Assembly (NCBI GenBank): GCA_023249225.1
Contig: JAHFDA010000006.1
Coordinates: forward strand, 1,349-65,348
DNA from: a bacterium
Lineage (GTDB): Bacteria; Margulisbacteria; Marinamargulisbacteria; JAHFDA01
Direction: 5' to 3'
DNA length: 64,000 nt
Each line of letters opens with the position of its first letter. Position 1 is the first letter of the stretch. The notes beneath the pieces are model-generated. The model saw only the letters and a list, made by a program, of their open reading frames with translations. It searched no databases and was not told the DNA's origin. Positions 5,009-56,756 of the stretch are shown in pieces. The translations under genes and the position numbers were made by a program.

Positions 5009-5671
5009 ATGACCAGCGTCGCAAGCGATCCATTTTACTTTTGTACTTACCGCGTCTACTGCCAGCCCGCCGGACTACAAGCGCGCTCTTTAAAGGAGCT
5101 GGTACAGGCTATTGGTGCAGCACCCGACGAGTCGCTGTGGTATCACCAGCATTACGCCTATGTGCATTACCGTTTTGACGGCCCACGCTTTAGAAATGAT
5201 TTTTCGGTGTGGGTACGCGATACCTGGGGTCTTGAAGTTTTATCCGAACGCCTGTCGGCGATCGACAACCGGCATGTCTTTGATGTTCAAGAAGTCCGTG
5301 ATCGTTTGCGCGGCATGCTGTATGACTGGCACCGCCACGAAGGCAAAGATCACTTTGAGGATAGCGTAGACGAGCCCCGTGCCTTTCGCGTCATCAAGCC
5401 CTGCCGCGTACTGCTTTCCACGGGTCTTTCGGCATGCACGCTCGAAGAATTTGCGCAGACGTTGCGCCGGGTTCCAGCGCAAAGCGTGTTTTACCATACC
5501 TTTGAAGCGCGTCTTAAAGCACCCGACCACAGCAATGATTTTTCACGCTGGATTGATGGGGCCTTAAAGCTGCCTAACCTGGGTCGCGAAATTCAGTTGA
5601 TCAATCCGTTTTTCTACACCATCGACGATTACCGTGAGCAGATCTTAAATCGGATTCGCGCCTATGTATAA
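5009..5671 (+). CDS. Hypothetical protein, first gene of an overlapping three-gene glycan cluster
   Basis: A 220-aa ORF whose end overlaps the glycosyltransferase start by 8 nt. I recognise no domain. Confidence 0.45.
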   Translation: MTSVASDPFYFCTYRVYCQPAGLQARSLKELVQAIGAAPDESLWYHQHYAYVHYRFDGPRFRNDFSVWVRDTWGLEVLSERLSAIDNRHVFDVQEVRDRLRGMLYDWHRHEGKDHFEDSVDEPRAFRVIKPCRVLLSTGLSACTLEEFAQTLRRVPAQSVFYHTFEARLKAPDHSNDFSRWIDGALKLPNLGREIQLINPFFYTIDDYREQILNRIRAYV

Positions 5672-6908
5672 GGCTAGTTTTACCGACCTGGCGCATCTTT
5701 TAGGCCCGCAGCGCCTGCACGAGTTGCGGCCCATGCTCGAGCAGGTACTCAAGGGCAAGCGTCTGCATCACCTGACCGGTCCGCAGCCACACAAAGGCAC
5801 CGAGGAACTGATTACCCGGCTGATGGCGCTGGGAGAACAAATCGGTTTTGAGGTGACCTGGGATCGCCTCTGGGCCGATGCCGGCTTTGAACAAGCCTGC
5901 GACGTCCTGTCGCAGGAAAGTCTCAACGAGCAGTTCATGTGGTCGCAACGCCTGAAGCAAGCTTACGAAGAAGGTCTGGATTACGCTAAAAAGCAATTAC
6001 GCCGCCATCTTTGGAACGCGGACGCCGTGTTTGTGCACGACATTCCGGCACTGCCGGTGGTGGCCGAACGTGGCGCGGGTTGCTGGGCGTACTTTTCTTA
6101 TGACTATATTGGCTGGACGCCGCGTGTGTTTTACGAAAGCCACATTGCCCTGCTGAAAAAATTTGACGCGGTGATCCTGCCCAATGCTGCTTTTACCGCG
6201 CCCGAACTGCCACCACAGCATCTGTGGCTTCCGGCCGTCGACGTGCTTGCACCCCGAAACCGCGAGCTAGAAGACGATGAAGCGCAGCGCCTCTGGCAGG
6301 GACTAGCACTGCCAAAGGATCTCACTTACATTCTTTATGCCGACCGCTATGATCGGCTCGACCATGCCGAAGAACTGTTGGGGCATTACCTGGGGCACAA
6401 GGCGCATGAGCGGGTGGCGCTGGTGATTGCAGGCGAAGCCGCCGAAACCAACCCGGCTGCCCGGCGCCATTTTGCGGCCTTACGCGACCGTGCCAAGGCG
6501 GATCCCAGCGTGCATGTGCTGGCCTTGCCGGCCAACGAGGCCCTGCTTAATGTCTTGCGTCGGCGCAGTGTCGCCCAGCTCTACTGGCCTCGGCCCGGGC
6601 GCACTGACCCATCTTTAACCGAAGCTTTGTGGGCCGGTTCTCCGGTCATCGCTATGGATACACTGGGTGTGCGCGATATTGTGCGTTCGGGTGTCACCGC
6701 ATGGCTGGCCACCGATGCGCTGCACATGCTCGACCTTGCCCAGCAGCTGGTGCAAGAAAAAAAGCGGGCGTTGGGATTGTCAGAGCGGGCGCGTATGTAT
6801 GCCTGGGATTATTTATTGCTGGATAACGAACTGATGAATTTGGCTTGTTTTTTTGTTTTTAAGCAAAATCCGCAGACTTGGGTGGATTGGACCGCGCAGT
6901 ATCGTTGA
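5664..6908 (+). CDS. Glycosyltransferase (GT-B fold, family-4-like)
   Basis: The C-terminal EALWAGSPVIAMDTLGVRDIV resembles the Glycos_transf_1 EAxxxGxPVIA motif. The length is 414 aa. Confidence 0.5.
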   Translation: MYKASFTDLAHLLGPQRLHELRPMLEQVLKGKRLHHLTGPQPHKGTEELITRLMALGEQIGFEVTWDRLWADAGFEQACDVLSQESLNEQFMWSQRLKQAYEEGLDYAKKQLRRHLWNADAVFVHDIPALPVVAERGAGCWAYFSYDYIGWTPRVFYESHIALLKKFDAVILPNAAFTAPELPPQHLWLPAVDVLAPRNRELEDDEAQRLWQGLALPKDLTYILYADRYDRLDHAEELLGHYLGHKAHERVALVIAGEAAETNPAARRHFAALRDRAKADPSVHVLALPANEALLNVLRRRSVAQLYWPRPGRTDPSLTEALWAGSPVIAMDTLGVRDIVRSGVTAWLATDALHMLDLAQQLVQEKKRALGLSERARMYAWDYLLLDNELMNLACFFVFKQNPQTWVDWTAQYR

Positions 6909-7864
6909 TGGCCAGCCCGCTGCTCAAACGGCCCTGGCAGAATTTTCCGGGGTGTTATTTATCGGCTTTTATCAGTCCGCGCAGTGCAGCACAGGTACAA
7001 CATTTAATTGGCCCGGCCGATATCAGCGCATATGAAAAAAAAATTGGCCGTAAACTGGCTATTGTCATGGTATTTCTTGCCTGGGGAGAACCGCAGGCGC
7101 TGACGCCCTTTCCGCGCCAGTGGTGCCAAGCGATCTCCCAACAGGGGGCCATCCCACACATTACCTGGGAGCCGTGGAATTTTGACAAGCAGTGCTCGTA
7201 TTATCGAAACCAAAGTATTGTGGCTGGGATGTGGGACCGCTACCTTGAAAGCTGGGCTCACGACATCAAATCCTGGGGACAATCGCTGTTCTTAAGATGG
7301 GGTCACGAAATGAATTCAGACTGGTATCCCTGGGGTGGCCAAATTTCCGAAGGGGGTGCCGCTGCCTATGTACAGGCCTACCGGCATGTGGTGAATGTTT
7401 TTCGCGCCCAGGATGTGAGCAACGTGGTTTGGATTTGGGGTCCCGATGCCGCTACTTTTGCCAGCCATAAGTTTCCCTTTGAATACGAACCTTATTATCC
7501 CGGAGATGACTATGTCGACTGGATTGGTTTTGATGGCTATAACTTTGCCATGGATGGGACGCTTCAAAAGCCCTGGACCCGTTTCAGAGATCTTTTTAGC
7601 GACATCTACCAGCGTTGCGAACGTTTAAACAGCCAGGCTCCATTTATGATTGGCGAGTTTTCCAGCGGAGAAAAAGGTGGTGATAAGGCTCTTTGGATTG
7701 TAGAAGCCTATCAGGATATTGAAAAACAGTTTCCACGGATACGGGCGGTGACCTGGTTTGACCAGGATAAAGAATCGCATTGGCCTATCGACAGCTCGCC
7801 AGAGGCGCAACAGGCCTTTCGCAAAGCCATCGCCTCCCAATATTTTTTAGATAAAATCGTGTAA
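6908..7864 (+). CDS. Clan GH-A glycoside hydrolase (GH26-like, beta-mannanase-like)
   Basis: LFLRWGHEMNSDWYPWGG is a candidate acid/base HEMN motif and FMIGEFSSG is a candidate nucleophile xGEF motif. The ATG start overlaps the upstream stop (TGATG). Confidence 0.55.
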   Translation: MASPLLKRPWQNFPGCYLSAFISPRSAAQVQHLIGPADISAYEKKIGRKLAIVMVFLAWGEPQALTPFPRQWCQAISQQGAIPHITWEPWNFDKQCSYYRNQSIVAGMWDRYLESWAHDIKSWGQSLFLRWGHEMNSDWYPWGGQISEGGAAAYVQAYRHVVNVFRAQDVSNVVWIWGPDAATFASHKFPFEYEPYYPGDDYVDWIGFDGYNFAMDGTLQKPWTRFRDLFSDIYQRCERLNSQAPFMIGEFSSGEKGGDKALWIVEAYQDIEKQFPRIRAVTWFDQDKESHWPIDSSPEAQQAFRKAIASQYFLDKIV

Positions 7865-7874
7865 AACAACTATG

Positions 7875-7904
7875 TTACGAAATGACCTGCAGGCATGCTA
7901 ATAT
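7875..7904 (+). promoter_or_regulatory. Candidate sigma70-type promoter of the rpsP operon (TTACGA-N18-TAATAT)
   Basis: This hexamer pair with an 18-bp spacer lies about 45 bp upstream of the rpsP GTG start. It is a weak match found by eye. Confidence 0.2.
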
Positions 7905-7949
7905 TAAGTCCCCTTTTACAAAAAAATACTATAGGTACAGGAGTTATGT

Positions 7950-8357
7950 GTGGCAGTCAAAATTAGATTAAGCCGTAAAGGCACCCGGAGTAAACCTTTT
8001 TATCATCTGGTGGTTATTCACTCTAAAAATAGGCGTGACGGAGATTTGGTCGAGGATCTGGGTTGGTATAACCCCATTAGCACGCCCAAGCAAGCGCTGT
8101 TAAATACCGAACGGGTTAAATATTGGGTTGGCATCGGTGCCGAAGTGGCCGAAGGTGCGCAGTCTTTGCTCGAAGCGCAAGGTATTCTTGGCAAGTCAAA
8201 AATTGTGGGTCCTAAATCCCGCGAAAAAAGACGCAAGCCAGACAAGCTCACCAAGGCCGAAAAGCGTACCCAAGCGCAGTCTATGGTCGAGGCCGGAGAT
8301 AAAACCGAAGCTTCTCAAAAAGCACAATCCGAAAAAGCCAAAGAGACGCCCGCATAG
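7950..8357 (+). CDS. rpsP: 30S ribosomal protein S16 with a Lys-rich C-terminal extension
   Basis: MAVKIRLSRKGTRSKPFYHLVVIHSKNRRDG matches the S16 signature. A GTG start is preceded by an AGGAG Shine-Dalgarno sequence. Confidence 0.9.
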   Translation: MAVKIRLSRKGTRSKPFYHLVVIHSKNRRDGDLVEDLGWYNPISTPKQALLNTERVKYWVGIGAEVAEGAQSLLEAQGILGKSKIVGPKSREKRRKPDKLTKAEKRTQAQSMVEAGDKTEASQKAQSEKAKETPA

Positions 8358-8399
8358 TTTGGCGTTAGGATTAATGAGGTTTTATCAGGAGGCGGCGTA

Positions 8400-8678
8400 A
8401 TGAAAGAGCTCGTTGAATATATTGTCTCTGCTTTGGTGGATGTCCCCGAAGAAGTCATGGTGATCGAAACCCTGGGTGAAAGCATTATCGTGCTAGAAAT
8501 ATTTGTAGCACAGGATGATATCGGCAAAGTCATTGGACGCGAGGGACGCATTGCCAATGCCATCCGAACCATTGTTAAGGCTTCGGCGGCAAAATCCAAT
8601 AAAAAAATAACCATAGAAATTCTTTCCAAAAATCCAGAAGGTGAAAAGCAGCCGGTCGGCCAGCGCAGCACCTTTTAG
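8400..8678 (+). CDS. KH-domain RNA-binding protein (YlqC/UPF0109 family)
   Basis: VIGREGRIANAIRTIV contains the KH GxxG loop. Its position after rpsP is conserved, and the start is preceded by AGGAGG. Confidence 0.8.
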   Translation: MKELVEYIVSALVDVPEEVMVIETLGESIIVLEIFVAQDDIGKVIGREGRIANAIRTIVKASAAKSNKKITIEILSKNPEGEKQPVGQRSTF

Positions 8679-10923: not shown

Positions 10924-13881
10924 TTACAAACCGGGGGTAGGCATTTCAAAGCTTTGGTTTGCCTGATGCTGCCGGTTTTCAAGCTGCGTTAACAGAAAAC
11001 GTGCTTCGGCGTGGTCAGGCTTATGGCTTAAAAGATCCTGCAAGGCTGCTTTTGCTTCGTCCATCTGATTGGTTTTAAGATAAAGCTTGGCCATGTTTAG
11101 ACGCGCGTGTATTTGTTCGGGATCAAACTGTACGCAGTAATATAACTCATCGATGCCCGCCTGCCATTCTTGTTTTCCAATGGCCTGATTGGCACGTACA
11201 ATATAACCTTTGACCTTGTTAATGACATATTCGCGGTCGGCAGTAGCTTTTTCGGGTTGGCCAAGCTGGTCATAAGCCCGGGCACGTTTGAGCCAGATGT
11301 CTTTAAAGCGGTCATCAATTTCGAGCGTGCGGCTGTAATAGTTGACCGCATCCTGGTACTGGCCACGCTGCATATTAATATCCCCGGCCTTGTTTAAAAA
11401 AATAGGATTGTTAGGATCGTCTGCGGCACCCTCTTCAAAGTGTTTTTCGGCCAGGTTGGAATACTGTTTCTGCTCGTCCAGATCCGTCGTTAAACTGCCC
11501 ATCAAGGCGTAAACGGTGGCCACATACATGTGATACCAAGGGTTTTCTGGCTGTAGATGCAGACACTCTTCAAAGGTATCCCTGCTCTTCAGCAGTAAGC
11601 TCTTTTTTTCGTTGTTATCGCCAGCGTAGGCATGCCAGTCGTGGTAGATCTTTCCAAGTTCGTCGCGGAATTGGGTCTCGAGCGGGGCGTAATCCACTGA
11701 TCGTTGGGCATACATTGCGGCATTCTTAAAATGCAATTCTTGTTTACTGTCCATGGCTTTTTGGTGTGCATTGTAGGCCAGCAGGTAGTTGTATTCTGCC
11801 TTCCACAGATGCGTACTTTGAAACAAGCCAGCAAGGGTGGCCAACCACAACAGAGGGATGCAAAATAATTGCCAGGTGGGCACATCCTGTAAATTAAAGT
11901 GTCCTGACCAGTGTTCCGCCGGCACGCCCTCAACAAGGGTTCTGGGCTGCATGCAAATGGCCACACCGATACCACATACCATAAAAAAAAGGGAATAGGT
12001 GGCGACCACACCAAAGTTAAAAAAGACCTGTCCCTGGTAGGTAAAAACGGCCCCTAAAAGACCGGCCATAATAAACATAAAAGGCTGATCTTGTGTCTGG
12101 TGAATGGTTTTAACGATGCAATAAATAATGTACGGAACAAATCCGCCATAAAAAAGTAAAAATCCAATCAAGCCAATGGTGACCAGTTTGTTTAGGTAGT
12201 CGTTATGAAACTTATCGGGTGTGGCTCCGTGGTGGCCTTCGAGTATTCCATAATCTTTTAAGCGATATTTGGGAAAGATATATTTCACCGTTCCAGGACC
12301 GGTGCCGATCAATAATTGATGCCAGTTGTCGTGCCATGCGTTTAGTCCCGACTTCCACATGCTGGTGCGGGCCGAGCCGGTAATGGCAATTTGACTGATG
12401 CTGGCAACTTTGGACTGCACGTTTTCGGCCGACTCTGAAAGCGTGGCATGTACCCGGCCTCCGGTGAGATCGGCCCACATCTTAGGCAGGGCGGGCCGTG
12501 CGGAGATGGCCGCCAACATGATAAAACTGATCAGCAACCAGGCCCACACATTAGGATGATGCTTTGAATAACGCTTCCAGCTAAGACCAAACAAACCGAC
12601 CCCCGCCAAAAGGTAAAGTGTTAATTGTCCAAAACCCAGCGCCACGTTCTGAAGCTGGGTTAGCGCAAAAATGATCAAAAGCCTTAGTCCAATCTCCTTA
12701 TAATCACGCAAGCAGAAAATCAAAAATACGATGTAGATTGCAATCCACCCCAGCAGCGGTCCCCCATACAGCCAGCTTATTTTATAAACCTTGAACAGAT
12801 AAAACATAAAAAATACACCAGTGGTCACTATGGTCATCATCACGTCCATAAAAAAGAGCTTGGGTTTGTTGGCGTCCACAAAGTTTTTAAACGAAAAAAT
12901 AAAAAAGAACACCATGGCCGCAAAAAATCCCTGCCAGGCGGCACGGCTGTAACTTAAAACCTGGGTATGGTACACCAAAGTGGCAATGGCAAAGAGTGTG
13001 CCTTGCCACCCAAGATACCAGCCTAAAATTCCGATACCCAGCGCCATCAGCAGGGCCATGAAAACCGCCGGAGCCGAAAATTCGTAACTTACTAAAAAAG
13101 CCCAACATAGTGCCAACATCACGATGAACACAGCGATTTCGATACCCACGTTTTTCCAGTTTGTTCCTTTTTGTTGGGCAAAGGCATTTAAAAGCCCAAG
13201 CACAATGGGCACCATCATGGCCACATAGGGGCAGTAGTGCACCGGGTTGTTAATCGAAGCAAACACACGTTGCGAGGCATCGCCTGACCAGGTGATAAAG
13301 TCATATCCCAAACTCTGCGAGAAACCGTAAAGCGATACTAAAAAGGCAGCCATTGCCATGGTACCCAGAAGTAAAAACAAATGGCGCTGGCTGATGATCG
13401 TGTGGGTAAAGATGATCACTAAAAGGGTAATAAAGATCACATGAATCCAGCCGTCCCAACGGTCGTACGCACCCATAATGGCTGAAGTACGGTTTACCGA
13501 AAAAAAGGTGCTCACAGAGTCCACCGCCAACCAGGCCAGGATTAGCCAGTCGAGGGCTTTTAAATGGAACCATTTTTTTGGCAGGGGTGCTTCGATTGAT
13601 ACAGGCTCGGGCGCAGCCATTTTAACGGAGGCAGATTTTTTCCCCTTGTTTTTTGAAGCCTGGGCCACTTCAGAAACCGATTTTTGACCCCGAAGCAACA
13701 GGTATTTGGTGCCCCACAGTCCCAGGATGAGAATCAGGTTTATTTTTAGCCAGGTAATTTTATTAACTTCAAAGGCCGAGCGCGTCAGGGTGCTAAAGAC
13801 CAGTGGGATGCCAACAATAAAAAGCATCTGAAGCACAAGGATGCTCCGGTTAAAGAACCGGGCGATGCCTTCATTGGACAT
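10924..13881 (-). CDS. Large polytopic membrane protein with an O-antigen ligase (Wzy_C)-like core and C-terminal TPR repeats
   Basis: It is 985 aa with many hydrophobic segments. The C-terminal 300 aa have TPR-like repeats (AYDQLGQPEKA..., YLKTNQMDEAKAALQ). Confidence 0.6.
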   Translation of the reverse strand: MSNEGIARFFNRSILVLQMLFIVGIPLVFSTLTRSAFEVNKITWLKINLILILGLWGTKYLLLRGQKSVSEVAQASKNKGKKSASVKMAAPEPVSIEAPLPKKWFHLKALDWLILAWLAVDSVSTFFSVNRTSAIMGAYDRWDGWIHVIFITLLVIIFTHTIISQRHLFLLLGTMAMAAFLVSLYGFSQSLGYDFITWSGDASQRVFASINNPVHYCPYVAMMVPIVLGLLNAFAQQKGTNWKNVGIEIAVFIVMLALCWAFLVSYEFSAPAVFMALLMALGIGILGWYLGWQGTLFAIATLVYHTQVLSYSRAAWQGFFAAMVFFFIFSFKNFVDANKPKLFFMDVMMTIVTTGVFFMFYLFKVYKISWLYGGPLLGWIAIYIVFLIFCLRDYKEIGLRLLIIFALTQLQNVALGFGQLTLYLLAGVGLFGLSWKRYSKHHPNVWAWLLISFIMLAAISARPALPKMWADLTGGRVHATLSESAENVQSKVASISQIAITGSARTSMWKSGLNAWHDNWHQLLIGTGPGTVKYIFPKYRLKDYGILEGHHGATPDKFHNDYLNKLVTIGLIGFLLFYGGFVPYIIYCIVKTIHQTQDQPFMFIMAGLLGAVFTYQGQVFFNFGVVATYSLFFMVCGIGVAICMQPRTLVEGVPAEHWSGHFNLQDVPTWQLFCIPLLWLATLAGLFQSTHLWKAEYNYLLAYNAHQKAMDSKQELHFKNAAMYAQRSVDYAPLETQFRDELGKIYHDWHAYAGDNNEKKSLLLKSRDTFEECLHLQPENPWYHMYVATVYALMGSLTTDLDEQKQYSNLAEKHFEEGAADDPNNPIFLNKAGDINMQRGQYQDAVNYYSRTLEIDDRFKDIWLKRARAYDQLGQPEKATADREYVINKVKGYIVRANQAIGKQEWQAGIDELYYCVQFDPEQIHARLNMAKLYLKTNQMDEAKAALQDLLSHKPDHAEARFLLTQLENRQHQANQSFEMPTPGL

Positions 13882-13959: not shown

Positions 13960-14604
13960 TCATTTTTTATTAATTTGCGAAATGGCCCAGTGACAAATGG
14001 TTTTTAATCCGGTGTTCTGACATAAGGGTGTTAAAAAAGGCAGGGCGGACGGATCTTTTAATGTGCCCAGGGCCACCACACAGGTTTTACGCACATTGGG
14101 ATACTCAAGCCCCGTACACAAGCAAGCCACGGCCTGCGAACCGCCAATTTTCCAAAGCAGTTCTGCCGCCTTGTTAGAGAGCATCCAATCGGGTTGTTTA
14201 AGGGCGTCACTTAAAAAGCCAATGGCCTTGCTCCTCATGCGGGTAATGATGTCAAGGTAAGTGACCCGTTCGCCAGGCAAGCAGTCTTTAACGCGCGCAA
14301 AGACATAGGGCAGGCACAGGTCGGGCTGCCGGGCCATGGCCTTGATGGCGTTTTTGCGCACATGCTGATCGGTGTCAAAAATAAGCGTGGTTAAAAGCCC
14401 AGGTACTCGGGGTTCTGTGATGTTTCCCAAGGTATCCGCCACGCACCAGCGCACCAGCCAGTGAGGGTGATTTACATACTGGCTTAGGGCGTCTACGGCA
14501 GAGGGGTCAGAAATATCTCGAAAATCAAGTACGGCCGTCCAGTTTTCTTCATGGCGGGTGATTTTTTCAACCAACTTATTTATCTTATTAGATATTTTTG
14601 TCAT
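13960..14604 (-). CDS. HEAT/PBS-lyase repeat protein
   Basis: HEAT-like units recur (HPHWLVRWCVADTLGNI, QHVRKNAIKAMAR, PNVRKTCVVALGTL). The start is taken at MTKISN to avoid overlapping the divergent gene. Confidence 0.55.
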   Translation of the reverse strand: MTKISNKINKLVEKITRHEENWTAVLDFRDISDPSAVDALSQYVNHPHWLVRWCVADTLGNITEPRVPGLLTTLIFDTDQHVRKNAIKAMARQPDLCLPYVFARVKDCLPGERVTYLDIITRMRSKAIGFLSDALKQPDWMLSNKAAELLWKIGGSQAVACLCTGLEYPNVRKTCVVALGTLKDPSALPFLTPLCQNTGLKTICHWAISQINKK

Positions 14605-14647
14605 GCACTGCAACCGCTTGGCGGGCCATTCGAAATAATAGCAAAGG

Positions 14648-17524
14648 ATGCAAATCTTTAGGACAATTTCCGAGCGCTGCGAACTGCCCTTATCGGTCAA
14701 GAGTTGGATCCGTTTTAAATATGGCAAAGAAACAACGGACCTGGTCATGCAGGTTGTGACGCAACTTAAACAGGCCGAGGCGCAAGGCGTCTTGGCCATG
14801 GACTGGGAACGGGCCTATAAGAAACTCAAATATGAACTGCGGGTAGGCCACACGCCGTATATGTTGGTGGCCAGCCTGATTTCATTAGGATCGCTTAAGC
14901 GTGGTTCCTTGCAAGACGCGATGGTTGCTTTGCAGACGAACACGCCCAGGGGGGATTTGGCACAGATCGACGAAGCCACGCTTCAAAAAATGGGGTGCAT
15001 GATTGCCGCTGCCGACAAAGCCATGCAATTTTACCGTCACCAGATATTTATCGGCGACCCACATCAAAAAAACGAAATTTCTTTTTGGGCCCGGCGCCTG
15101 CAACGGTTTATTCTGGCAGAGCTCTCTTTGCTTGGAACCCAGCATGTTTTGCCAGACGAACTTGATTTGGCGCGCCGGGCTTCCCGGCTTTTGGCCTTAG
15201 AAGTTTATGTGGAAATCGAAGAGCAAACCTCGGTCAAAGCTTATGCAACCTATCTTGAAAACTATAATCGGCATGATTTCAAGGCGCACACCGAGCATTT
15301 AAAGGCGTTTACGGTATTGCCAGAACTCATGCGTTACCTAGGGTTGGATATTGGCTACCATCTTGAGCAAATTGCTTTTTGCTTTGTTGAGCCAGAGCTT
15401 TTTTTACATCATCGTCGGGCAGTGTTGGCCCATGTTGCCGGCATTGAGGTGCCGGGAGCAGGCCGTGATTTATGGCTTAATCTGCAAGAGCCCTGGAAAA
15501 ATTTTGAGGATAAACTTAGGCGTCAACAGGATCGGGTAAAGCGCATGTTGCGTCACAAAGGCCTGACAGATTTGCATTTATCGGGTCGCATTAAATCGGC
15601 GCACCGCAGCTGGGTGAAACTGCGTGAGCTATGCAATAAGGAACACATTTCTGTAGGGGGTGATCCCAAGGCCTACTGGGATTATTTGTATCTGATTAAA
15701 GACCTGGTGGGTTTTCAGGTCATTACGCAAAACCGCCGACAGATTCGCGCGGTCTCTGCGGCACTGCGCCAGGAATATTTTGTACTCAACACGGCAGACT
15801 ATATCCGCCACGGTCCCGAGTTGAATAAGCATAACGGTTACCGGGCCATCCATATCAAATGTCTCCCGGCAGAACGATCAGAGACGTACACAGATTTTCT
15901 AAAAGCGCTTGATGCAATGGCGGACCATCTCAAGGATGGCCAGCATTGGCTGGAACGCAGGGTGTATGTCGAAGCCGTCGAAGTTCGGGCCATGGCAGAT
16001 GGATTTTTGGTTTCAGATCATGACTGGCGCAATTACCGCGCAACCATGAAAGCGCACAATGCGTTGCTGATTAAGGTACAGGGCTTGCGCCGTTTGTTTG
16101 AGGCTGCGCATCTTTCAGAACTTTTGCAGGCGGGAAAATTTCAAAAATGTGTTACTGTGCTTGAAAAATTTTGGCGAATCGAAGTGGCGCCTACCGAAAT
16201 TCAACTGGTATCCAATTCTGATTACCAGAATAATTTTTATGGAACGGCAGCCCATATCAATTACACCGTCATGGGACGTGATGCAGTAGACACAGGCATA
16301 TCGATAGACGAGTTTCCTTCACCCGAATCTTTTGGACGTTGGTTTTTAACACAGGTGCGGCAAACTATGGATGTGCAGATTAGGCTTCCGGATGGCACGC
16401 TGGACTTTTTAAATTTACCGGTACGCAGCCAGTGGATCGACGTGCTGATGCATTATCAGGCGCAGACAAATTCGGAAGGCGGAATGAGAAATGCGGAACA
16501 GGCTCCGCTAAAAGTAGATGCTTCCGGAATTTATTTGCAGTGGCAGGCGCAAGGTGCGTCTGTATCGGATTATTCAGCTTTGCCTGTGGATGAGGGCTCT
16601 TTTATCGGTTTTCATGTTGCACAGACTGCATCCAAAGCGCGCATCCAGGTGCAGCCGTCACAAGTTCAGGCCTGGATACGTGGCACGAGCAAGCTGCTTG
16701 TGCTCGAGCATCTGATGGCTAAAAATCCGGAGTGGTTTGGCGTAGACGTGCTCGAAGAATTACGCAGCATACTTTATGGACGCGTGGATAAAACCACGTG
16801 TCCGGTGTTAACCAGACTTGAGCAGCATTTGCATGCTTACCTGGTTGATCGTGGATGGAATGTGGCCATTGAAGACCTTGAAAAATATTTTGAGGGTTGG
16901 GTCTACCGTCTGGGCTTTCGGAATTTTTTTGAGTTCCTTTTGGGGTTTGGATTTTTGGTATTCGTCGAGGATCACACCGACGAGCGCAGCAGTACGTTGC
17001 ACGGTGAGATCCTGCAGGCGATTGAGTCGATTGCCTTGCATCGTCCGCGTGTTGAACTTAAAGATCAGCAGCTTGTCATTGAAGCAGCCCAGGTTGACCC
17101 AGACATGGTGTTTGGACTTTTAGATTATTTGGCCCAGTTGCATCTCAATATTGAAACGCTGGAATTTGCGTTTGAAAAACAAAAAAAATCCTGGCCCCTA
17201 ACATTTAAGGCGGATATTTCGCATTTGTCTGAAGACGTGGGCATTGATCTTAAAAAATCGATTGCCCAGTTTGTGGCCCGTTACAGTCAACAAAATTCAC
17301 TGGACGCAGACGCCTGGTATCTGCGCTCCGATATGCGGGAAGGCTTTAAGGTCAACAAGGCCTTGCCTGATCAACCCGGTGAACTGCGTCGTCTGATGGC
17401 GACATTACGGGGGCAATATTCGCCTCCAGACAGAGCCGATGCGTTACGGGTGTTTGGTATTGAGGCCCACAATGGTCGCGTTCAAGTTGAGCTTATCCAA
17501 AAGAAAGATCAGGCTTCCTCGTAA
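14648..17524 (+). CDS. 958-aa protein of unknown function with an internal, divergent RelA/SpoT-like (alarmone-synthetase-fold) nucleotidyltransferase core at about aa 300-455. The start could instead be the MQVV ATG at 14747.
   Basis: GRIKSAHRSWVKL resembles GRxKxxxSIxxKM, DLVGFQVI resembles DVRAVRIV, and ADYIRHGPELNKHNGYRAIHI resembles DYVANPKPNGYQSIH. A degenerate VEAVEVRAMADGF sits where the EIQIRT-LAMDFW motif would be. The order and spacing follow the RelA/SpoT synthetase fold. Confidence 0.5.
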   Translation: MQIFRTISERCELPLSVKSWIRFKYGKETTDLVMQVVTQLKQAEAQGVLAMDWERAYKKLKYELRVGHTPYMLVASLISLGSLKRGSLQDAMVALQTNTPRGDLAQIDEATLQKMGCMIAAADKAMQFYRHQIFIGDPHQKNEISFWARRLQRFILAELSLLGTQHVLPDELDLARRASRLLALEVYVEIEEQTSVKAYATYLENYNRHDFKAHTEHLKAFTVLPELMRYLGLDIGYHLEQIAFCFVEPELFLHHRRAVLAHVAGIEVPGAGRDLWLNLQEPWKNFEDKLRRQQDRVKRMLRHKGLTDLHLSGRIKSAHRSWVKLRELCNKEHISVGGDPKAYWDYLYLIKDLVGFQVITQNRRQIRAVSAALRQEYFVLNTADYIRHGPELNKHNGYRAIHIKCLPAERSETYTDFLKALDAMADHLKDGQHWLERRVYVEAVEVRAMADGFLVSDHDWRNYRATMKAHNALLIKVQGLRRLFEAAHLSELLQAGKFQKCVTVLEKFWRIEVAPTEIQLVSNSDYQNNFYGTAAHINYTVMGRDAVDTGISIDEFPSPESFGRWFLTQVRQTMDVQIRLPDGTLDFLNLPVRSQWIDVLMHYQAQTNSEGGMRNAEQAPLKVDASGIYLQWQAQGASVSDYSALPVDEGSFIGFHVAQTASKARIQVQPSQVQAWIRGTSKLLVLEHLMAKNPEWFGVDVLEELRSILYGRVDKTTCPVLTRLEQHLHAYLVDRGWNVAIEDLEKYFEGWVYRLGFRNFFEFLLGFGFLVFVEDHTDERSSTLHGEILQAIESIALHRPRVELKDQQLVIEAAQVDPDMVFGLLDYLAQLHLNIETLEFAFEKQKKSWPLTFKADISHLSEDVGIDLKKSIAQFVARYSQQNSLDADAWYLRSDMREGFKVNKALPDQPGELRRLMATLRGQYSPPDRADALRVFGIEAHNGRVQVELIQKKDQASS

Positions 17525-18828
17525 AGTCCAAACTGCTTGTGCAAAAGGTTTTTAAGCAGCAAAGGCGCGGCAATAAACTGGCCGGCATATTTGTCGACTT
17601 CGCTGCGGCGCAGTTCAAGTTGTGGAGCCTTGCGGATTTCGCCTGCCAGGCCCAGTTCGCCGTAACAAAAACTGCGTGGTGGCAGGGCTTGATTCAGGGC
17701 GCTGCTGGCCAGTGCCAGGGCTACGGCCAGATCAGAGGCTGTATCGGTAAGCTTAAAGCCCCCGACGACATTGAGGTATACGTCACGCTGGCTAAACCGC
17801 AGGCCGGTGTGACGTTCAAGAATCGCCAGAATCATGTCCACGCGATTGCCGTCGAGGCCGTTTACGACCCGCCGTGGAAGGTGCAAGGTGCTTGCCGCAG
17901 TCAGGGCTTGAATTTCGATTGCCAGTGGCCGTGAACCTTCAAGCGCAATGGTCCAGGCCGAACCAGGCACGTCCGCAATGGCAGGATGGTCTAAAAATAG
18001 GGTAATGTCGCTGATGGGTTTAAGGCCAGTACGGGTCATTTCAAAAAGCCCCAGTTCATGGCTAGGACCGAAACGGTTTTTATAACTGCGCAGCATGCGC
18101 AAGGCCTGTACGCGTTCGCCCTCAAAAAACAGCACCGTATCCACCATGTGCTCAAGCACCCGTGGTCCCGCAATCGACCCGTCTTTGGTCACATGGCCGA
18201 TCAGGATCAGCGTGCTTTGTGGGCTCTGGGTTTTTACGGTTTGAATCAACAAGGCAGCGCTTTCACGCACCTGCGTGACGGTGCCGCAGGCCGAGGCTAC
18301 TTCGGGATGCTGCAGGGTCTGCACAGAATCCACCACCACGATATCGGGTTTTTCACGGCTGATGTAGGCGCTGATCTGTGATACTTCGGTTTCCTGTGTG
18401 ACATAGGGCAGCATCGTCACCCCCAGGCGCTGCGCGCGTTCCTTGACCTGTGTCAGCGATTCCTCACCGCAGACATACAGGGCTTTGGCCGGATTGCGTG
18501 CCGCCAGAATCTGCAGGGCCAGCGTGGATTTACCAATTCCCGGTTCGCCTGCCAGCAAGATGGCAGCCCCTTCGATCAGACCCCCGCCCAGCACGCGGTC
18601 AAGTTCCTGGATGCCGGTGGCATGGCGCCGAAAGAGTTCGGATGCGACCGTATCGAGCAGCACCACGGGCAAAGGTCCACCCGCGTTTACCGAGCGGCCA
18701 GAGGGTGCGCTGCGTTCGACAAACTCTTCGAGGCTGTTCCAACTGCTGCAGTCTGGGCAACGTCCCAGCCAGCGCGGCTGTTCGGATCCGCATTGGTTGC
18801 AAAGAAAGGTGACTTTGGTTTTTACCAT
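17509..18828 (-). CDS. radA: DNA repair protein RadA/Sms
   Basis: It has an N-terminal zinc finger (CNQCG...CPDC), a GEPGIGKSTL Walker A motif and a Lon-like C-terminal domain. Confidence 0.9.
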   Translation of the reverse strand: MVKTKVTFLCNQCGSEQPRWLGRCPDCSSWNSLEEFVERSAPSGRSVNAGGPLPVVLLDTVASELFRRHATGIQELDRVLGGGLIEGAAILLAGEPGIGKSTLALQILAARNPAKALYVCGEESLTQVKERAQRLGVTMLPYVTQETEVSQISAYISREKPDIVVVDSVQTLQHPEVASACGTVTQVRESAALLIQTVKTQSPQSTLILIGHVTKDGSIAGPRVLEHMVDTVLFFEGERVQALRMLRSYKNRFGPSHELGLFEMTRTGLKPISDITLFLDHPAIADVPGSAWTIALEGSRPLAIEIQALTAASTLHLPRRVVNGLDGNRVDMILAILERHTGLRFSQRDVYLNVVGGFKLTDTASDLAVALALASSALNQALPPRSFCYGELGLAGEIRKAPQLELRRSEVDKYAGQFIAAPLLLKNLLHKQFGLYEEA

Positions 18829-21586: not shown

Positions 21587-24247
21587 ATGCGAATTCGTTT
21601 TTTAAAATGGTTGGCCGAATTTTCAACCGAAAATTACCAGGCAGTCTTGTTTATTGCGGCAGTGATATCCATTATTTGCGCCTTTATTGGTGCAGGCTTG
21701 CAGATACGCACCCAATGGGTGGACATGTTGCCCGAATCTCTGGCATCGGTCAAAGAATTTAACGCTATTATTGAAAATTTTGCGTCCGACTCCGATATCC
21801 TGGTGGTTCTGGAAGGGTCTCCGGAAACGCTAAAACAGGCGGCCGAAAGCCTGGCAGGAGCGCTGATACAAAATCGTACCTTAATCCGTTCGGTTGACTA
21901 CCGGGTGGATCGCGAGTTTTTAGAAAAACATGGACTGCTGCTGCAAGATGAGCAGGACATGGATACGTGGATGCAACTTTTTAAGAATCTTAACCTGACC
22001 GGAGTACTTCAAAGAACCAGTGGACTGATCGAACAAGGCCTGAAAGACGAGTCACAGTCCGATGATGCCGCCAAGGGCCGAATAGCCCAGCGGGGGATGG
22101 CCTGGCTTGAGGCCTGGCTCGGGTATTTTGAGCGCAGCTTGGATGGAAATCCCAGTTCACAGGAAGAACTGACCCAGTGGATGGAGCATACCTTTTACGG
22201 GGAGACATACTACTTTAATGCGCCACATAATCGCCTTATTCTGTTTGTGCGCCCGCAAAGCCCCGATCATAAAAATGCCCGGCAGATTAAGGGTCTGATA
22301 CAAAACGCATTGCAACCGTATCCGCAGGTGCAAGTAGGCCTGACCGGTGTTTACATGGTTTCCTATGAAGAACTGCAAACGATACGCGGCGATTTAAAAA
22401 CGAACTCTGTGCGTTCCCTGGTACTCATTCTGCTTATCTTTGTGTTGGCTTTTCGCATGCTGCTGGCGCCGTTGATTGCCAATCTGCCGGTGATCATGAG
22501 CATTTTGGTTACGCTGGCAGTGGTCCGCTATAGCGTGGGATATCTTAATCTCATTACATCGGTCTTTGGCATCATTTTGCTGGGTCTCGGGGGTGACTAT
22601 TCCATTCACATTCTGTCGCACGTCACTGACCCCGAAAAAGAAGGCGTCAAAATGTCCGAAAAAATCAAAGAAGCCTTTGTCACCTCTGGCCAAGGCATCA
22701 TTACCGGCTGCCTGACCAACAGCCTGGCTTTTTTTACCTTGATGCTGGCAGATTTCCGTGGCTTGTCTGAATTGGGTTTTACCACTGGTATTGGCATCAT
22801 CATTTGCATGAGTTGCGTGATGTGCGTTTTGCCGGCGTTGCTGATGTGGGAAAGTTCGCTGCATGGAAAGATTCCGAAATACCGCCATTTGAACCAGCGC
22901 CGCCCGCCTGCGGTGTCGTTTCAGTTTTTACAAACGTTGGGAGATAAACTTGTGCGTTACCGTTGGGCTGTGGTCGGCGTGATGCTGGCGCTGACGATTT
23001 TATTTTCGTACGAGGCCAGGCACATCACCTTTAACCGTAGCCGCACAGCCATTCAGCCTGAAAACATGCCCAGTGTTAAGGTGCTGAACCAAGTCATTGG
23101 CGATTTTGGCCTGTCGCCAGACGGTGCCCTGTTAAGTCTTAGCACCTTGCAGCAACTGCGTTACTACACGCACCAGTTTGAGCAATTGCCCGAAGTGGCC
23201 ATGGTTGACAGCGTGGTTCGGTATCTTCCTACGGTGGCAGACCAGGAAACCCGCTTGAAAAAAATTTCGGGATATCGGTTGACATTGCAAGCATCAAGCC
23301 AGGAACATCAAAGTTATTATCTTGAGAACCGCAGACAACTTTCGGAGGCCTTTGGAGACTTAAAAAAACGGTTGCTTGAGCTGGCTTCTATGGCCTATCT
23401 ACAAGGTGAATATGAAGCCAGTGATCGTGCCCAGCAGCTTGCCGATGGGGTGGTCACCACGCTTCAGGCCAAGGTCAATACACTGGGTTCACCACGTGGA
23501 ATCGATGCTTTTCAAGATGTTTTTGAAAAAAGTGCTCGTGCGTTTCTTTGGCGTGTGACGGATACACAGCCGGTGACTCCTGAAAACCTGCCTTACGCGA
23601 TCCAGCAGCGTTATATTGGCAAGGACGGAAAATTTCTTTTAGGTATCTTACCCAAAGAGGATGTATGGCAGGAGCCCTTTCAGACCAAATTTTTAAAAGC
23701 GGTTCAGGAGGTCAGTTCCCGGGTGACCGGAACCGTGGTGTTATTTTCGCAGTCGGTTAACCTGGCCACTCAAGAGGTGCGCTGGTGTACCTTGGCATCG
23801 TTTTTGACCATGGTGATTTTGCTATGGCTCGACTTTAAAAACCTGACCACCACGCTGGTGGCGCTTATACCACTTATTGTAGGAGTCTTGTGGATGCTTG
23901 GGATACTGCATTTGTGTGGCGTGGAATACAATGTGCTTAACATCATGGCGATTCCTTTAATTCTTGGCATCGGCATTGACAATGGTGTACACATGATCCG
24001 CCGTTACCTTATCGAAGGCCGGGGCAAGTTGGGCTTGGCCATGCATGGCAGCGGACGGGGGATTTTGCTTACCTCGGGAACAAATGTATGCGGCTTTGGT
24101 GCCTTGGCGATGTCGACGCATCCGGGCCTGGCCAGCTTTGGTTTGGTGCTTACGGTCGGTTTGCTTGCCACTTTGACGACAACGATGATTACATTGCCAG
24201 CGCTGATTGCGGTGTTTGAACAATTTAATATTTCACTCAAAGGCTAA
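21587..24247 (+). CDS. RND-superfamily exporter (MMPL/HpnN-like, 12 transmembrane segments)
   Basis: Two six-TM bundles are each preceded by large periplasmic loops. The MMPL-like repeat is LTNSLAFFTL... Confidence 0.75.
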   Translation: MRIRFLKWLAEFSTENYQAVLFIAAVISIICAFIGAGLQIRTQWVDMLPESLASVKEFNAIIENFASDSDILVVLEGSPETLKQAAESLAGALIQNRTLIRSVDYRVDREFLEKHGLLLQDEQDMDTWMQLFKNLNLTGVLQRTSGLIEQGLKDESQSDDAAKGRIAQRGMAWLEAWLGYFERSLDGNPSSQEELTQWMEHTFYGETYYFNAPHNRLILFVRPQSPDHKNARQIKGLIQNALQPYPQVQVGLTGVYMVSYEELQTIRGDLKTNSVRSLVLILLIFVLAFRMLLAPLIANLPVIMSILVTLAVVRYSVGYLNLITSVFGIILLGLGGDYSIHILSHVTDPEKEGVKMSEKIKEAFVTSGQGIITGCLTNSLAFFTLMLADFRGLSELGFTTGIGIIICMSCVMCVLPALLMWESSLHGKIPKYRHLNQRRPPAVSFQFLQTLGDKLVRYRWAVVGVMLALTILFSYEARHITFNRSRTAIQPENMPSVKVLNQVIGDFGLSPDGALLSLSTLQQLRYYTHQFEQLPEVAMVDSVVRYLPTVADQETRLKKISGYRLTLQASSQEHQSYYLENRRQLSEAFGDLKKRLLELASMAYLQGEYEASDRAQQLADGVVTTLQAKVNTLGSPRGIDAFQDVFEKSARAFLWRVTDTQPVTPENLPYAIQQRYIGKDGKFLLGILPKEDVWQEPFQTKFLKAVQEVSSRVTGTVVLFSQSVNLATQEVRWCTLASFLTMVILLWLDFKNLTTTLVALIPLIVGVLWMLGILHLCGVEYNVLNIMAIPLILGIGIDNGVHMIRRYLIEGRGKLGLAMHGSGRGILLTSGTNVCGFGALAMSTHPGLASFGLVLTVGLLATLTTTMITLPALIAVFEQFNISLKG

Positions 24248-25020
24248 TGCATATGGCAAACGTTGATCGCCCAGTCCGTTTCTTTTTAAGCTTACTCATG
24301 GTCGTTGTCTTTTTGTTGAGCAAGGCCTCTGCCAAATCGCTCCCGACAGCTGATCACCTGCTTGAAAAAATGCGTCAAAATTTTTCAATTACCGGACGTT
24401 ATGCTGAAGTTTCTATGAACGTGGTGCGTGGTAATCGATCGGAATACATCCATTTTGAAATATTTGCGGCGGATGCCAATCGCTTGCGTCTTGAGGTCAG
24501 CCGGCCACCACGCGTACAGGGGTCGGCCATTGTACGCAATGCTGCGCATTTGTGGGTGGCACTGCCGCGGCTTGAAAGTGTACGGCATTATCCGGTTAAA
24601 AGCGGAGCCTTTGGGGATCAGACGGTTTTTGGCAGCGATTTAAGGCTTTCAGATTTGTTTGGTAGTTTCGAGGGTTACCAGGCCACGGTGATGCAGGGGG
24701 GACACAGCGAGCCCTTGCAACTTATTCTTGTGGCCATCGACAAACAAACGCAGCTTACCGTCTTGCTGACTCCAGATGAATTGCCCGATACGATTACCGT
24801 GGAGGAATGGACGCAAGGCGATAAATATGTGCCAGTACGCCGCCTGCAGGCCTTGTCATGGCAAGGCCTCGACCGCAAGCGTTATCCGGATAAACTGGTG
24901 GTGACCGATCTGGTCAAACCCGACCGTTCCACGCGCGTTGAAATTCTTTATTGGGTTGAAGGACGTGAGTTTCCGGAAAACCTGTTTGAAAAACCAGAAG
25001 AACGCAACATCCAGCCATGA
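24247..25020 (+). CDS. LolA-like outer-membrane lipoprotein-sorting family protein (putative partner of the RND exporter)
   Basis: It has a signal peptide and the beta-rich pattern of the LolA-like family. The start codon abuts the RND stop. Confidence 0.45.
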   Translation: MHMANVDRPVRFFLSLLMVVVFLLSKASAKSLPTADHLLEKMRQNFSITGRYAEVSMNVVRGNRSEYIHFEIFAADANRLRLEVSRPPRVQGSAIVRNAAHLWVALPRLESVRHYPVKSGAFGDQTVFGSDLRLSDLFGSFEGYQATVMQGGHSEPLQLILVAIDKQTQLTVLLTPDELPDTITVEEWTQGDKYVPVRRLQALSWQGLDRKRYPDKLVVTDLVKPDRSTRVEILYWVEGREFPENLFEKPEERNIQP

Positions 25021-35732: not shown

Positions 35733-36797
35733 TTATATTTTGTCCCATCCTTGTCGATTTTTCCGTTCCCACCGTGCCGCCCGCCCTGTTCCCAGGCAGC
35801 GAACCTTTTTCTCCTTGCGCATCCCGTTAAGCACCACACGAATCATGTCGTGGGAGACATGCGGACACGCAGCCTCGACATCCGCCAGCGTAAACTGCAG
35901 GGGCAATTCGCGCACCGACTGCTCGACCAAAACGGTTTTGTTTCCGCGTCGGCGTTGAAGTTTGCCAAGTTGCGTTTCGAACTGCTTGTAGGCTTCCACC
36001 AGCGTGACAATAAAAAATTCGGTCCACGGGCGAATGTCATGTTTCCCAAGATGCCAGTTTTTTGAGGAGCGCTGCAGAACATCGTAATACTGCTCCTTGC
36101 GATCCTCGACGATTTTTTCCAGAGCCACATAGCGGCCCACATCGTAGTCATTTTGATAGAGCAGCAGGGTGGTTAGGAGTCGCGAGAGCCTGCCATTGCC
36201 GTCGCGGAACGGATGGATGCATAAAAAATCAAGCACCAGCGCAGCGACCCGTACCACGTCTGGAATCTGCCCATCCTCGGCCAGATCGTGATACCGGCGA
36301 CAGGTTTCCTTAACGAAAGCGGGCGTTTGCCGGGCTGAAACTGGAACAAACCGGGTTTTCCACGAACCATCTGGAAGCCGCTCCTCAATGGTATTGTCCC
36401 GCCGTTTAAAGTGGCCGACAGGCTCGTCGGTCAGCCGGAACATTTCTTTGTGAAAATCCAGGATGCTTTCGGGGGTCAAACGCAAGCGCAGCGGCTTTTG
36501 GTGAATGCGCGACAAAACGGCCTTGTACCCCAACACCTCCGCCTCGGAACGATTGCCAGGTTTGGCGTTTTTAAACAGAGCCTTGATACGCTGCGGCGTT
36601 ACCACCACGCCTTCGATGCGGTTGGATGACTCGGTGCTTTGGATCATGGCGCTGTATCTTAGTGTTTCAAGGGTTTGCGGGGTTTGTTTCTTAAATAAGT
36701 CCTGCCGACCCTTGTAACGGCCTAATTGCTGGAGCAACCCGGCAAAAGAGATGTCGAAATACTGATCCTTTAAATAATGGGGATCAAGGGAAAACAT
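35733..36797 (-). CDS. Fic/Doc (Fido) family protein
   Basis: HPFRDGNGRLSRLL is the canonical Fic motif HPFx[DE]GNGR. A winged-helix-like tail follows it. Confidence 0.85.
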   Translation of the reverse strand: MFSLDPHYLKDQYFDISFAGLLQQLGRYKGRQDLFKKQTPQTLETLRYSAMIQSTESSNRIEGVVVTPQRIKALFKNAKPGNRSEAEVLGYKAVLSRIHQKPLRLRLTPESILDFHKEMFRLTDEPVGHFKRRDNTIEERLPDGSWKTRFVPVSARQTPAFVKETCRRYHDLAEDGQIPDVVRVAALVLDFLCIHPFRDGNGRLSRLLTTLLLYQNDYDVGRYVALEKIVEDRKEQYYDVLQRSSKNWHLGKHDIRPWTEFFIVTLVEAYKQFETQLGKLQRRRGNKTVLVEQSVRELPLQFTLADVEAACPHVSHDMIRVVLNGMRKEKKVRCLGTGRAARWERKNRQGWDKI

Positions 36798-56749: not shown

Positions 56750-56756
56750 AAACAGA

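Follow-up and report, generated by a model that had tools for sequence, protein, structure and literature searches.

What is the large protein that is encoded beside radA on contig JAHFDA010000006.1 (assembly GCA_023249225.1) of a member of the Marinamargulisbacteria, and does its centre hold a hidden alarmone synthetase? The window, i.e. the whole stretch of 64,000 nucleotides (nt) that was analysed, contains an open reading frame (ORF) of 958 amino acids (aa) in which an earlier note, made from the sequence alone, had recognized a cryptic RelA/SpoT-like nucleotidyltransferase core. Enzymes belonging to the superfamily of RelA/SpoT homologs (RSH) control the stringent response and, as toxic small alarmone synthetases (toxSAS), take part in toxin-antitoxin and in anti-phage systems. 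The reading to which we give about half of our confidence is that the ORF is a chromosomal core gene which evolves fast and is restricted to the lineage. Its product is then a large protein of several domains, and the centre of this protein (aa ~283-405) would be a highly divergent pyrophosphokinase domain of the RelA/SpoT superfamily. In the following it is called the RSH-like protein.

Similarity of the Central Segment to the RSH Synthetase Fold

PF04607 (RelA_SpoT) was the sole Pfam family found in the native protein (E 7.3e-5, 23.4 bits), with aa 346-405 aligned to positions 19-76 of the 113-position profile, and the NCBIfam search returned no family. Since the E. coli SpoT homologs were all more than 90% identical, metagenome long RSHs and plasmid small alarmone synthetases (SAS) were used for a core profile of 20 sequences, which comprised 12 long RSHs of metagenomic or E. 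coli origin and eight plasmid SAS or RSH-domain proteins. Comparison of the unspliced 958-aa protein with this core by hhalign gave a probability of 87% (E 3.8e-6) and aligned aa 310-403 with columns 14-90 of the 128 columns of the core alignment. Our own RSH hidden Markov model (HMM) was applied to a background set taken from the window and 80 unrelated loci (3,780 stop-to-stop ORFs with 915,007 aa in total), and ranked the RSH-like ORF first among them (26.6 bits, E 1e-6). The second-best ORF, at 19.6 bits, was a genuine remote RSH on locus L154, and the remaining ORFs scored at most 9.3 bits. The best match among the PDB sequences, S. aureus RelP (6EWZ), was weak and convincing locally. The same residues gave a weak match to the PADLOC family PDC-S33 (17.3 bits, profile positions 92-147 of 349 only), which was shown to be an RSH-domain family, as scores of 298-425 bits were obtained with it for plasmid-encoded proteins annotated as "RelA/SpoT domain-containing."

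Because of the hhalign score and of the first rank in the background test, with its wide gap, a chance resemblance is very unlikely. Judged from these alignments, the resemblance of aa 310-403 to the N-terminal two-thirds of the RSH synthetase fold is very distant but very probably genuine. The part of the fold that is present (helix-strand-helix-strand-loop-strand) makes up the donor site for ATP and the acceptor loop, and the segment aa 283-408 is strongly basic (net charge +13). The profile search that the earlier note had proposed thus returned a similarity to RSH synthetases by both Pfam and hhalign, and the four strings named there lie where it had placed them, the first three in RSH order and far above chance. 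Its claim of a cryptic RelA/SpoT-fold core in a large protein stood for the ATP-donor and acceptor-loop part but not for the catalytic block.

The remote RSH-fold protein on L154 (…QGYRDIKLNFE…IVELQLH), found by our own profile, is an unannotated ORF of 351 aa (+ strand, frame 2) close to radA in a Selenomonadaceae metagenome-assembled genome from the rumen (JAFZIV010000009.1). Full-length PDC-S33 members were observed on plasmids of Acinetobacter towneri (L171), Aliarcobacter cryaerophilus (L173), and Nostoc commune (L174); their genes are annotated as "RelA/SpoT domain-containing" or "hypothetical," and the proteins have a common C-terminal "EAYPNYFADS" motif.

Residues of the Donor and Acceptor Sites

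In the structure of FaRel2 with APCPP, the triphosphate is held by R64, K66, S70, K74, and R77 and Mg2+ by D90, the adenine is coordinated by G93, R95, and Q147, and E145 accounts for adenosine specificity, Y128 for the stacking of the acceptor base (PMC11782079). Alignment revealed that R64, K66, K74, D90, G93, and Y128 of FaRel2 correspond to R314, K316, K324, D352, G355, and Y398 of the RSH-like protein, respectively. The three basic residues R314, K316, and K324 match positions that are invariant in the 20 reference RSHs, and the serine of the triphosphate-binding helix (+6) is shifted by one residue (S321). The residues of the acceptor loop are present (D384-Y385, N396-G397-Y398, and H402), with a 4-aa insertion; a 15-aa insertion relative to SpoT precedes the Asp strand. 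The motif spacing described earlier matches that of SpoT apart from these two insertions. The RXKD/EXDD motif, which is specific to long RSHs (PMC3153485), is absent in front of the DY, where the sequence reads N-T-A-D.

The domain may bind ATP-Mg2+ and act as an alarmone-type synthetase, for which a purine nucleotide would be the acceptor of the beta,gamma-pyrophosphate at its 3'-OH. The catalytic Glu-x-Gln strand would most likely be formed by aa 515-521 (EIQ), beyond a largely helical beta-hairpin insertion of ~100 residues, and the N-terminal ~280 aa and the C-terminal ~400 aa might serve as regulatory or partner-binding modules, as do the flanks of long RSHs.

Candidate Positions of the Catalytic Strand

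In the reference RSHs, 13-20 residues separate the GYRAIH strand from the E-x-Q strand. Four rival placements of the E-x-Q were obtained for the RSH-like protein, at aa 409, 442, 517, and 575. The block aa 509-541 resembles EVQIRT...GVAAHW.YK, and in the hhalign comparison with long RSHs it appeared as a second match, colinear with the first. In-silico removal of aa 409-508, a splice chosen after the motif had been seen, raised the Pfam score to 35-36.3 bits, above the gathering threshold, and extended the match as far as position 109 of the 113-position profile. Over the baseline of 23.4 bits, splicing of the 509-541 block gained 12 to 13 bits and that of the third look-alike (aa 573-603) 6 to 9 bits, by its strand only, while an impossible upstream window, included as a control, gained 7 bits, the block aa 441-453 gained 2 to 5 bits, and random or shuffled windows gained 0 to 1.4 bits. 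Expressed as odds, the Pfam bits favor aa 515-521 by about 20:1 over the third block and by about 180:1 over aa 441-453.

The own profile was then used in a scan in which every downstream 47-aa window was spliced to the N-terminal part, with 60 shuffles as the null. The maximum gain in the shuffled null was 6.1 ± 2.1 bits (up to 14.7), and the gains of the third block, the 509-541 block, and the block aa 441-453 were 6.4, 5.3, and 3.1 bits, respectively. A sub-HMM restricted to the strand-helix block lacked power. The 509-541 block had been taken for the clearly correct strand, a view that was dropped after the shuffle scan, the third look-alike, and the fourth placement by MAFFT. Provisionally, aa 515-521 (E517-I-Q519) are retained as the leading candidate for the catalytic strand, a placement that is not established; with this strand, a hairpin insertion of ~100 aa (aa 406-508) would follow. 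The proposal that VEAVEVRAMADGF is a displaced EIQIRT...MDFW block is not supported, given its low Pfam gain and an own-profile gain below the mean maximum of the null.

Structure prediction of the full-length protein by AlphaFold2 from the single sequence yielded a mean predicted local distance difference test (pLDDT) score of 35.8, and a model of aa 271-620 seeded with SpoT fragments of the N-terminal part reached a pLDDT of 53.8. As seeding was limited to the securely aligned N-terminal part, the choice of the strand was unbiased. In this low-confidence model, which gives hints only, the secure region shows the expected order of helices and strands, aa 514-521 form a strand, and the block aa 441-453 is helical.

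Flanking Regions

No similarity was found for aa 1-282 and aa 560-958 in Pfam (fragments included, E ≤ 10), in NCBIfam, or among PDB sequences, which agrees with the description of ~300 aa upstream and ~500 aa downstream of the core as unrecognizable. There was no Pfam match of HD_4 or HD within aa 1-310 at E ≤ 10 and none colinear by HMM or hhalign, and none of TGS, ACT_4, or RelA_AH_RIS on fragments at E ≤ 10. Comparisons with long RSHs, by an HMM of 61 sequences and by hhalign, recovered only the synthetase core and left the regions corresponding to HD, TGS, helical, CC, and ACT domains unmatched. A TGS-like string, VQIRLPDGTLDFLNLP, and an ACT-like string, PDQPGELRRLMATL, had been picked out by eye; neither was significant in Pfam, HMM, or hhalign comparisons. 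Internal repeats and transmembrane segments are absent from the protein, and the window encodes no paralog of it.

The Gene and Its Relatives

The gene arrangement described earlier, i.e. the 958-aa ORF, its divergent HEAT-repeat neighbor, and the overlap with radA, was found in full (Table 1). In the public gene call (P0001, sequence-identical) the start is the second ATG at 14747, giving 925 aa; this is probably the true start, because the overlap with the divergent HEAT-repeat gene is thereby avoided. The RSH-like gene and radA have 16 nt of their 3' ends in common (17509-17524). This tail-to-tail overlap is unusually conserved, as it also occurs, with 4 nt, on contig ERZ27296333 (5434-5437) and on L084 (1459-1462).

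Table 1. Features of the RSH-like gene and of its two neighbors (positions in the window; residue numbers refer to the 958-aa form).
Feature	Residues (aa)	Position	Strand	Remarks
HEAT-repeat (NblB/PBS-lyase-like) gene		13960-14799	-	Divergent from the RSH-like gene; pairing kept in the sister lineage
958-aa ORF (RSH-like gene)		14648-17524	+	Intact, 958 codons
N-terminal region	~280 aa	14648-15493	+	Without family; HD (hydrolase) signal absent
N-terminal two-thirds of the RSH synthetase fold	310-403	15575-15856	+	Probable match by Pfam, hhalign, and HMM; secure part of the alignment
Triphosphate-binding helix, GRIKSAHRSWVKL	313-325	15584-15622	+	R314, K316, K324; alignment with 20 RSHs and SpoT
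Mg2+-Asp strand, DLVGFQVI	352-359	15701-15724	+	D352 and G355 kept; Q357 in place of Arg
Acceptor ("G-loop") segment, DYIRHGPELNKHNGYRAIHI	384-403	15797-15856	+	D384, Y385, Y398, H402
Block proposed in the earlier note, VEAVEVRAMADGF	441-453	15968-16006	+	Low gains; helical in low-confidence AlphaFold2 model; not supported
Best candidate strand and helix, WRIEVAPTEIQLVSNSDYQNNFYGTAAHINYTV	509-541	16172-16270	+	E517-x-Q519; Pfam, hhalign, AlphaFold2 strand
Third look-alike, TMDVQIRLPDGTLDFLNLPVRSQWIDVLMHY (TMDVQIRL...)	573-603	16364-16456	+	Exact VQIR; Glu replaced by D575
C-terminal 49 aa	906-954	17363-17509	+	Ungapped with the L084 fragment; 33% identity, pairwise E 2e-6
radA		17509-18828	-	Convergent with the RSH-like gene; arrangement kept in both relatives

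A word-indexed search of 5.8 billion proteins returned only the RSH-like protein itself, and an exhaustive phmmer search of 1.84 billion representatives likewise gave no relative beyond it. One presumed homolog, P0005, was rejected as a repeat-inflated chance match, since it is a triple CBM_4_9 repeat protein. A scan of genome contigs for the C-terminal pattern found nothing in a collection of GTDB species representatives that does not contain the source genome. A scan with lineage-specific RadA peptides yielded RadA segments of at most 59% identity, and none of the 80 loci encodes a relative of the RSH-like protein. Clustering at 90% identity leaves both RadA and ClpB as singletons, and the entire collection contains only two RadA relatives with more than 52% identity (67% and 64%).

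Both of these RadA relatives led to the RSH-like family. The one with 64% identity lies on a 12.4-kb contig (ERZ27296333) that encodes ClpB, RadA, a protein of 1035 aa, HEAT_2, LepB, L19, TrmD, YlqD, KhpA, and S16, and its gene order is that of the window except for a Wzy_C/TPR gene. The 1035-aa gene of this sister lineage (5434-8541, minus strand, on the 12,432-bp contig) is convergent with radA, with a 3' overlap, and divergent from HEAT_2, and it has a faint precomputed PF04607 match. The contig with the 67% relative (L084, 1.6 kb) ends in a 49-codon C-terminal fragment that overlaps radA and aligns with the C-terminus of the RSH-like protein (Table 1). These results demonstrate that the RSH-like gene, with its intact ORF, conserved position, and an ortholog C-terminus 33% identical, is real and under selection, and that it belongs to a positionally conserved, fast-evolving family of at least three members. 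Its designation as an ORFan therefore holds in so far as sequence searches return the protein alone, but positional orthologs exist in at least two other members of the lineage. Because of these orthologs, and of other large ORFs without Pfam family in the window, the orphan status mainly reflects a poorly sampled lineage.

The large ORFs of the window without Pfam match (E ≤ 1e-5) are located at 38008-39933 (-, 641 aa), 41959-43941 (-, 660 aa), and 44581-46326 (+, 581 aa). Two further Pfam-less ORFs of ~320 aa (40826-41803 and 46298-47266, both -) complete an unannotatable stretch of ~9 kb, which indicates that proteins without a Pfam family are frequent in this genome.

Genomic Context

The neighborhood consists of housekeeping genes (miaA, the rpsP-trmD-rplS cluster, lepB, radA, clpB, an HpnN-like transporter gene, smc, metG, and folD), and the block S16-KhpA-YlqD-TrmD-L19-LepB ... 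RadA-ClpB is syntenic in the sister lineage. At the locus a small partner or antitoxin gene, a mobile-element gene, and a defense-island signature are all absent; PADLOC reported nothing besides the weak PDC-S33 match, and no Rfam family matched in the window. The housekeeping setting and the lack of a small partner disfavor a role as toxSAS or in defense. The HEAT-repeat neighbor is conserved, yet so is the whole block, and therefore a specific functional link between the two genes cannot be deduced.

Between the HEAT-repeat gene and lepB, a gene for a 985-aa protein (10924-13881, -) combines a Wzy_C (O-antigen-ligase) membrane domain with a long C-terminal TPR array; as it is missing from the sister-lineage contig, it is a lineage-specific insertion. 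Two tandem, overlapping genes of ~800 codons each (54347-56749 and 56739-59204, both +) each encode a MopE-type putative metal-binding motif together with multiple FG-GAP repeats and look like a duplicated pair for secreted or surface proteins. Radical-SAM genes of the CofH/MqnC type occur at 36851-37987 (-) and 48385-49473 (-), a pair that suggests the futalosine route to menaquinone. Together with genes for an HpnN-like hopanoid-type RND transporter (21587-24247) and a LolA-like protein (24247-25020), they point to a diderm organism. A protein of the Fic/DOC family, with an AMPylase-type fold, is encoded amid housekeeping genes (35733-36797, -).

Enzyme, Pseudoenzyme, or Other Alternatives

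Several observations weigh against the reading of the central segment as a synthetase domain. The native protein stays below the gathering score of PF04607 (23.4 versus 27 bits), and hhalign with the broad 20-sequence profile found nothing for columns 91-128. No candidate for the catalytic strand exceeded the shuffled null in the unbiased splice scan, whose highest gain (+10.3 bits) came from the impossible upstream window, and MAFFT proposed the fourth, insertion-free placement, PAERSETY...LDAMADHLKDGQHW (E409). The adenine-stacking arginine (R95 in FaRel2), invariant in 20 of 20 references, is Q357 in the RSH-like protein. Because both AlphaFold2 models are of low confidence, the fold is uncorroborated by structure, and a Foldseek search of the low-confidence model against the PDB gave no RSH (best E 0.25). 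As Q357 replaces a near-invariant arginine and the catalytic strand is not placed, we consider the chances of a catalytically active RSH-like domain, as opposed to a pseudoenzyme, to be about even. The replacement of the arginine is not necessarily inactivating, since the remote RSH on L154 has a serine at this position.

The same replacement, the lack of a significant E-x-Q strand, and the fast evolution of the protein (33% identity, versus 67% for RadA) would all be expected of a pseudoenzyme or scaffold, i.e. an RSH-derived nucleotide-binding module which is no longer catalytic and has a sensory or structural role. Against this stands the retention of most donor and acceptor residues, which is unexpected after a loss of function; moreover, a true remote RSH (L154) lacks the arginine as well and aa 515-521 provide a plausible E-x-Q block, so that we regard this explanation as unlikely. 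A different origin would be that of a hyper-divergent long RSH, the Rel/SpoT ortholog of the lineage, in which the HD, TGS, helical, and ACT domains diverged past detection by profiles. Long RSHs are near-universal outside the Planctomycetes-Verrucomicrobia-Chlamydiae (PVC) superphylum (PMC3153485), the RSH-like gene is a conserved chromosomal core gene, its synthetase core is, as in long RSHs, preceded by ~300 aa and embedded in a large protein, and the helix leading into the motif is SpoT-like (L..xG[IL]....[VL]SGRxK); the TGS-like and ACT-like strings seen by eye also fit. Yet not even fragments at E ≤ 10 matched the accessory domains, the 61-sequence HMM and hhalign recovered the core only, and NTAD takes the place of RXKD/EXDD, which makes such an ortholog unlikely. 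To a similar degree we doubt that the RSH-like protein founded a new large-format RSH subfamily, as the (possibly only) alarmone synthetase of a deep-branching, essentially unsampled lineage, in which the ~100-residue hairpin insertion and the glutamine would remodel donor or acceptor specificity and new flanks would replace HD, TGS, and ACT.

The earlier note had also considered a toxSAS-like enzyme. A toxin or anti-phage effector that pyrophosphorylates tRNA or synthesizes (pp)pApp could be suggested by the weak match to the RSH core of PDC-S33 and by the basic surface, which could bind RNA. The PDC-S33 match, however, covers the common core only, with 17 bits as opposed to hundreds for true members, and a protein of 958 aa with no adjacent small antitoxin or mobile-element gene, in a conserved housekeeping synteny and with PADLOC otherwise blank, speaks against this role. 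The RSH-like protein is not a toxSAS toxin, and any variant of this explanation is very improbable. A chance resemblance, with no real relationship to RSHs, might be argued from the Pfam score below the gathering threshold and from the missing structural confirmation, but three independent profiles converge on the same 95 residues, the background test gave an E of 1e-6 with a wide gap to the non-RSH ORFs, and an ortholog has its own faint PF04607 match; this explanation is extremely improbable.

The reading of the protein as the product of a core gene with a divergent pyrophosphokinase domain at its centre has the following bearing. With a Pfam score below the cutoff and no HD, TGS, or ACT domain, such a protein could well be missed by HMM-based surveys and standard annotation. 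If the domain is active, the known architectures of alarmone synthetases would be extended, and the same core would, in some candidate lineages, be surrounded by a regulatory chassis of a very different kind; an inactive domain would mean that an RSH-derived pseudoenzyme has been conserved as a core gene. The practical value is modest today, as three members are known, none of them from a cultured organism, and 680 flanking residues are unmatched.

Comparison With Known RSH Systems

The toxSAS (FaRel2, CapRel, and PhRel) and PDC-S33 have the RSH donor-site architecture in common with the RSH-like protein, which is three to four times larger than toxSAS and has no bicistronic toxin-antitoxin-like locus, pZFD, or antitoxin. 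True PDC-S33 members reach their 298-425 bits over the full length, compared with 17.3 bits here. The likeness to SAS is closest for RelP and RelQ, as RelP (6EWZ) shares I.D..G..V...DYI.H....NGYR..HI over 55 residues, and the RSH-like protein has the SAS-like "R[IV]KS" triphosphate helix and lacks the RXKD/EXDD of long RSHs. SAS differ in being single-domain proteins of ~210-260 aa, in which the hairpin is short (17-20 aa from the His to the catalytic Glu) and EVQIRT..AMDFW..EH..YK is clearly recognizable, whereas in the RSH-like protein no E-x-Q could be located with certainty and the stacking arginine is a glutamine.

Rel, RelA, and SpoT, the long RSHs, are likewise large multidomain proteins with a central synthetase core; the junction between the helix and GRxK is similar, and the aligned N-terminal part is 25% identical to SpoT. 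Unlike them, the RSH-like protein is without detectable HD, TGS, helical, CC, and ACT domains and without RXKD/EXDD, and it contains the 15-aa and 4-aa insertions and possibly the hairpin insertion of ~100 aa. A published HMM-based census distinguishes 30 SAS, 11 small alarmone hydrolase (SAH), and 13 long-RSH subfamilies (PMC7229694). The superfamily is thus a known one, and the architecture described here (958-1035 aa, no HD, TGS, or ACT domain, a possible hairpin insertion, and Gln in place of Arg) matches none of the subfamilies tested.

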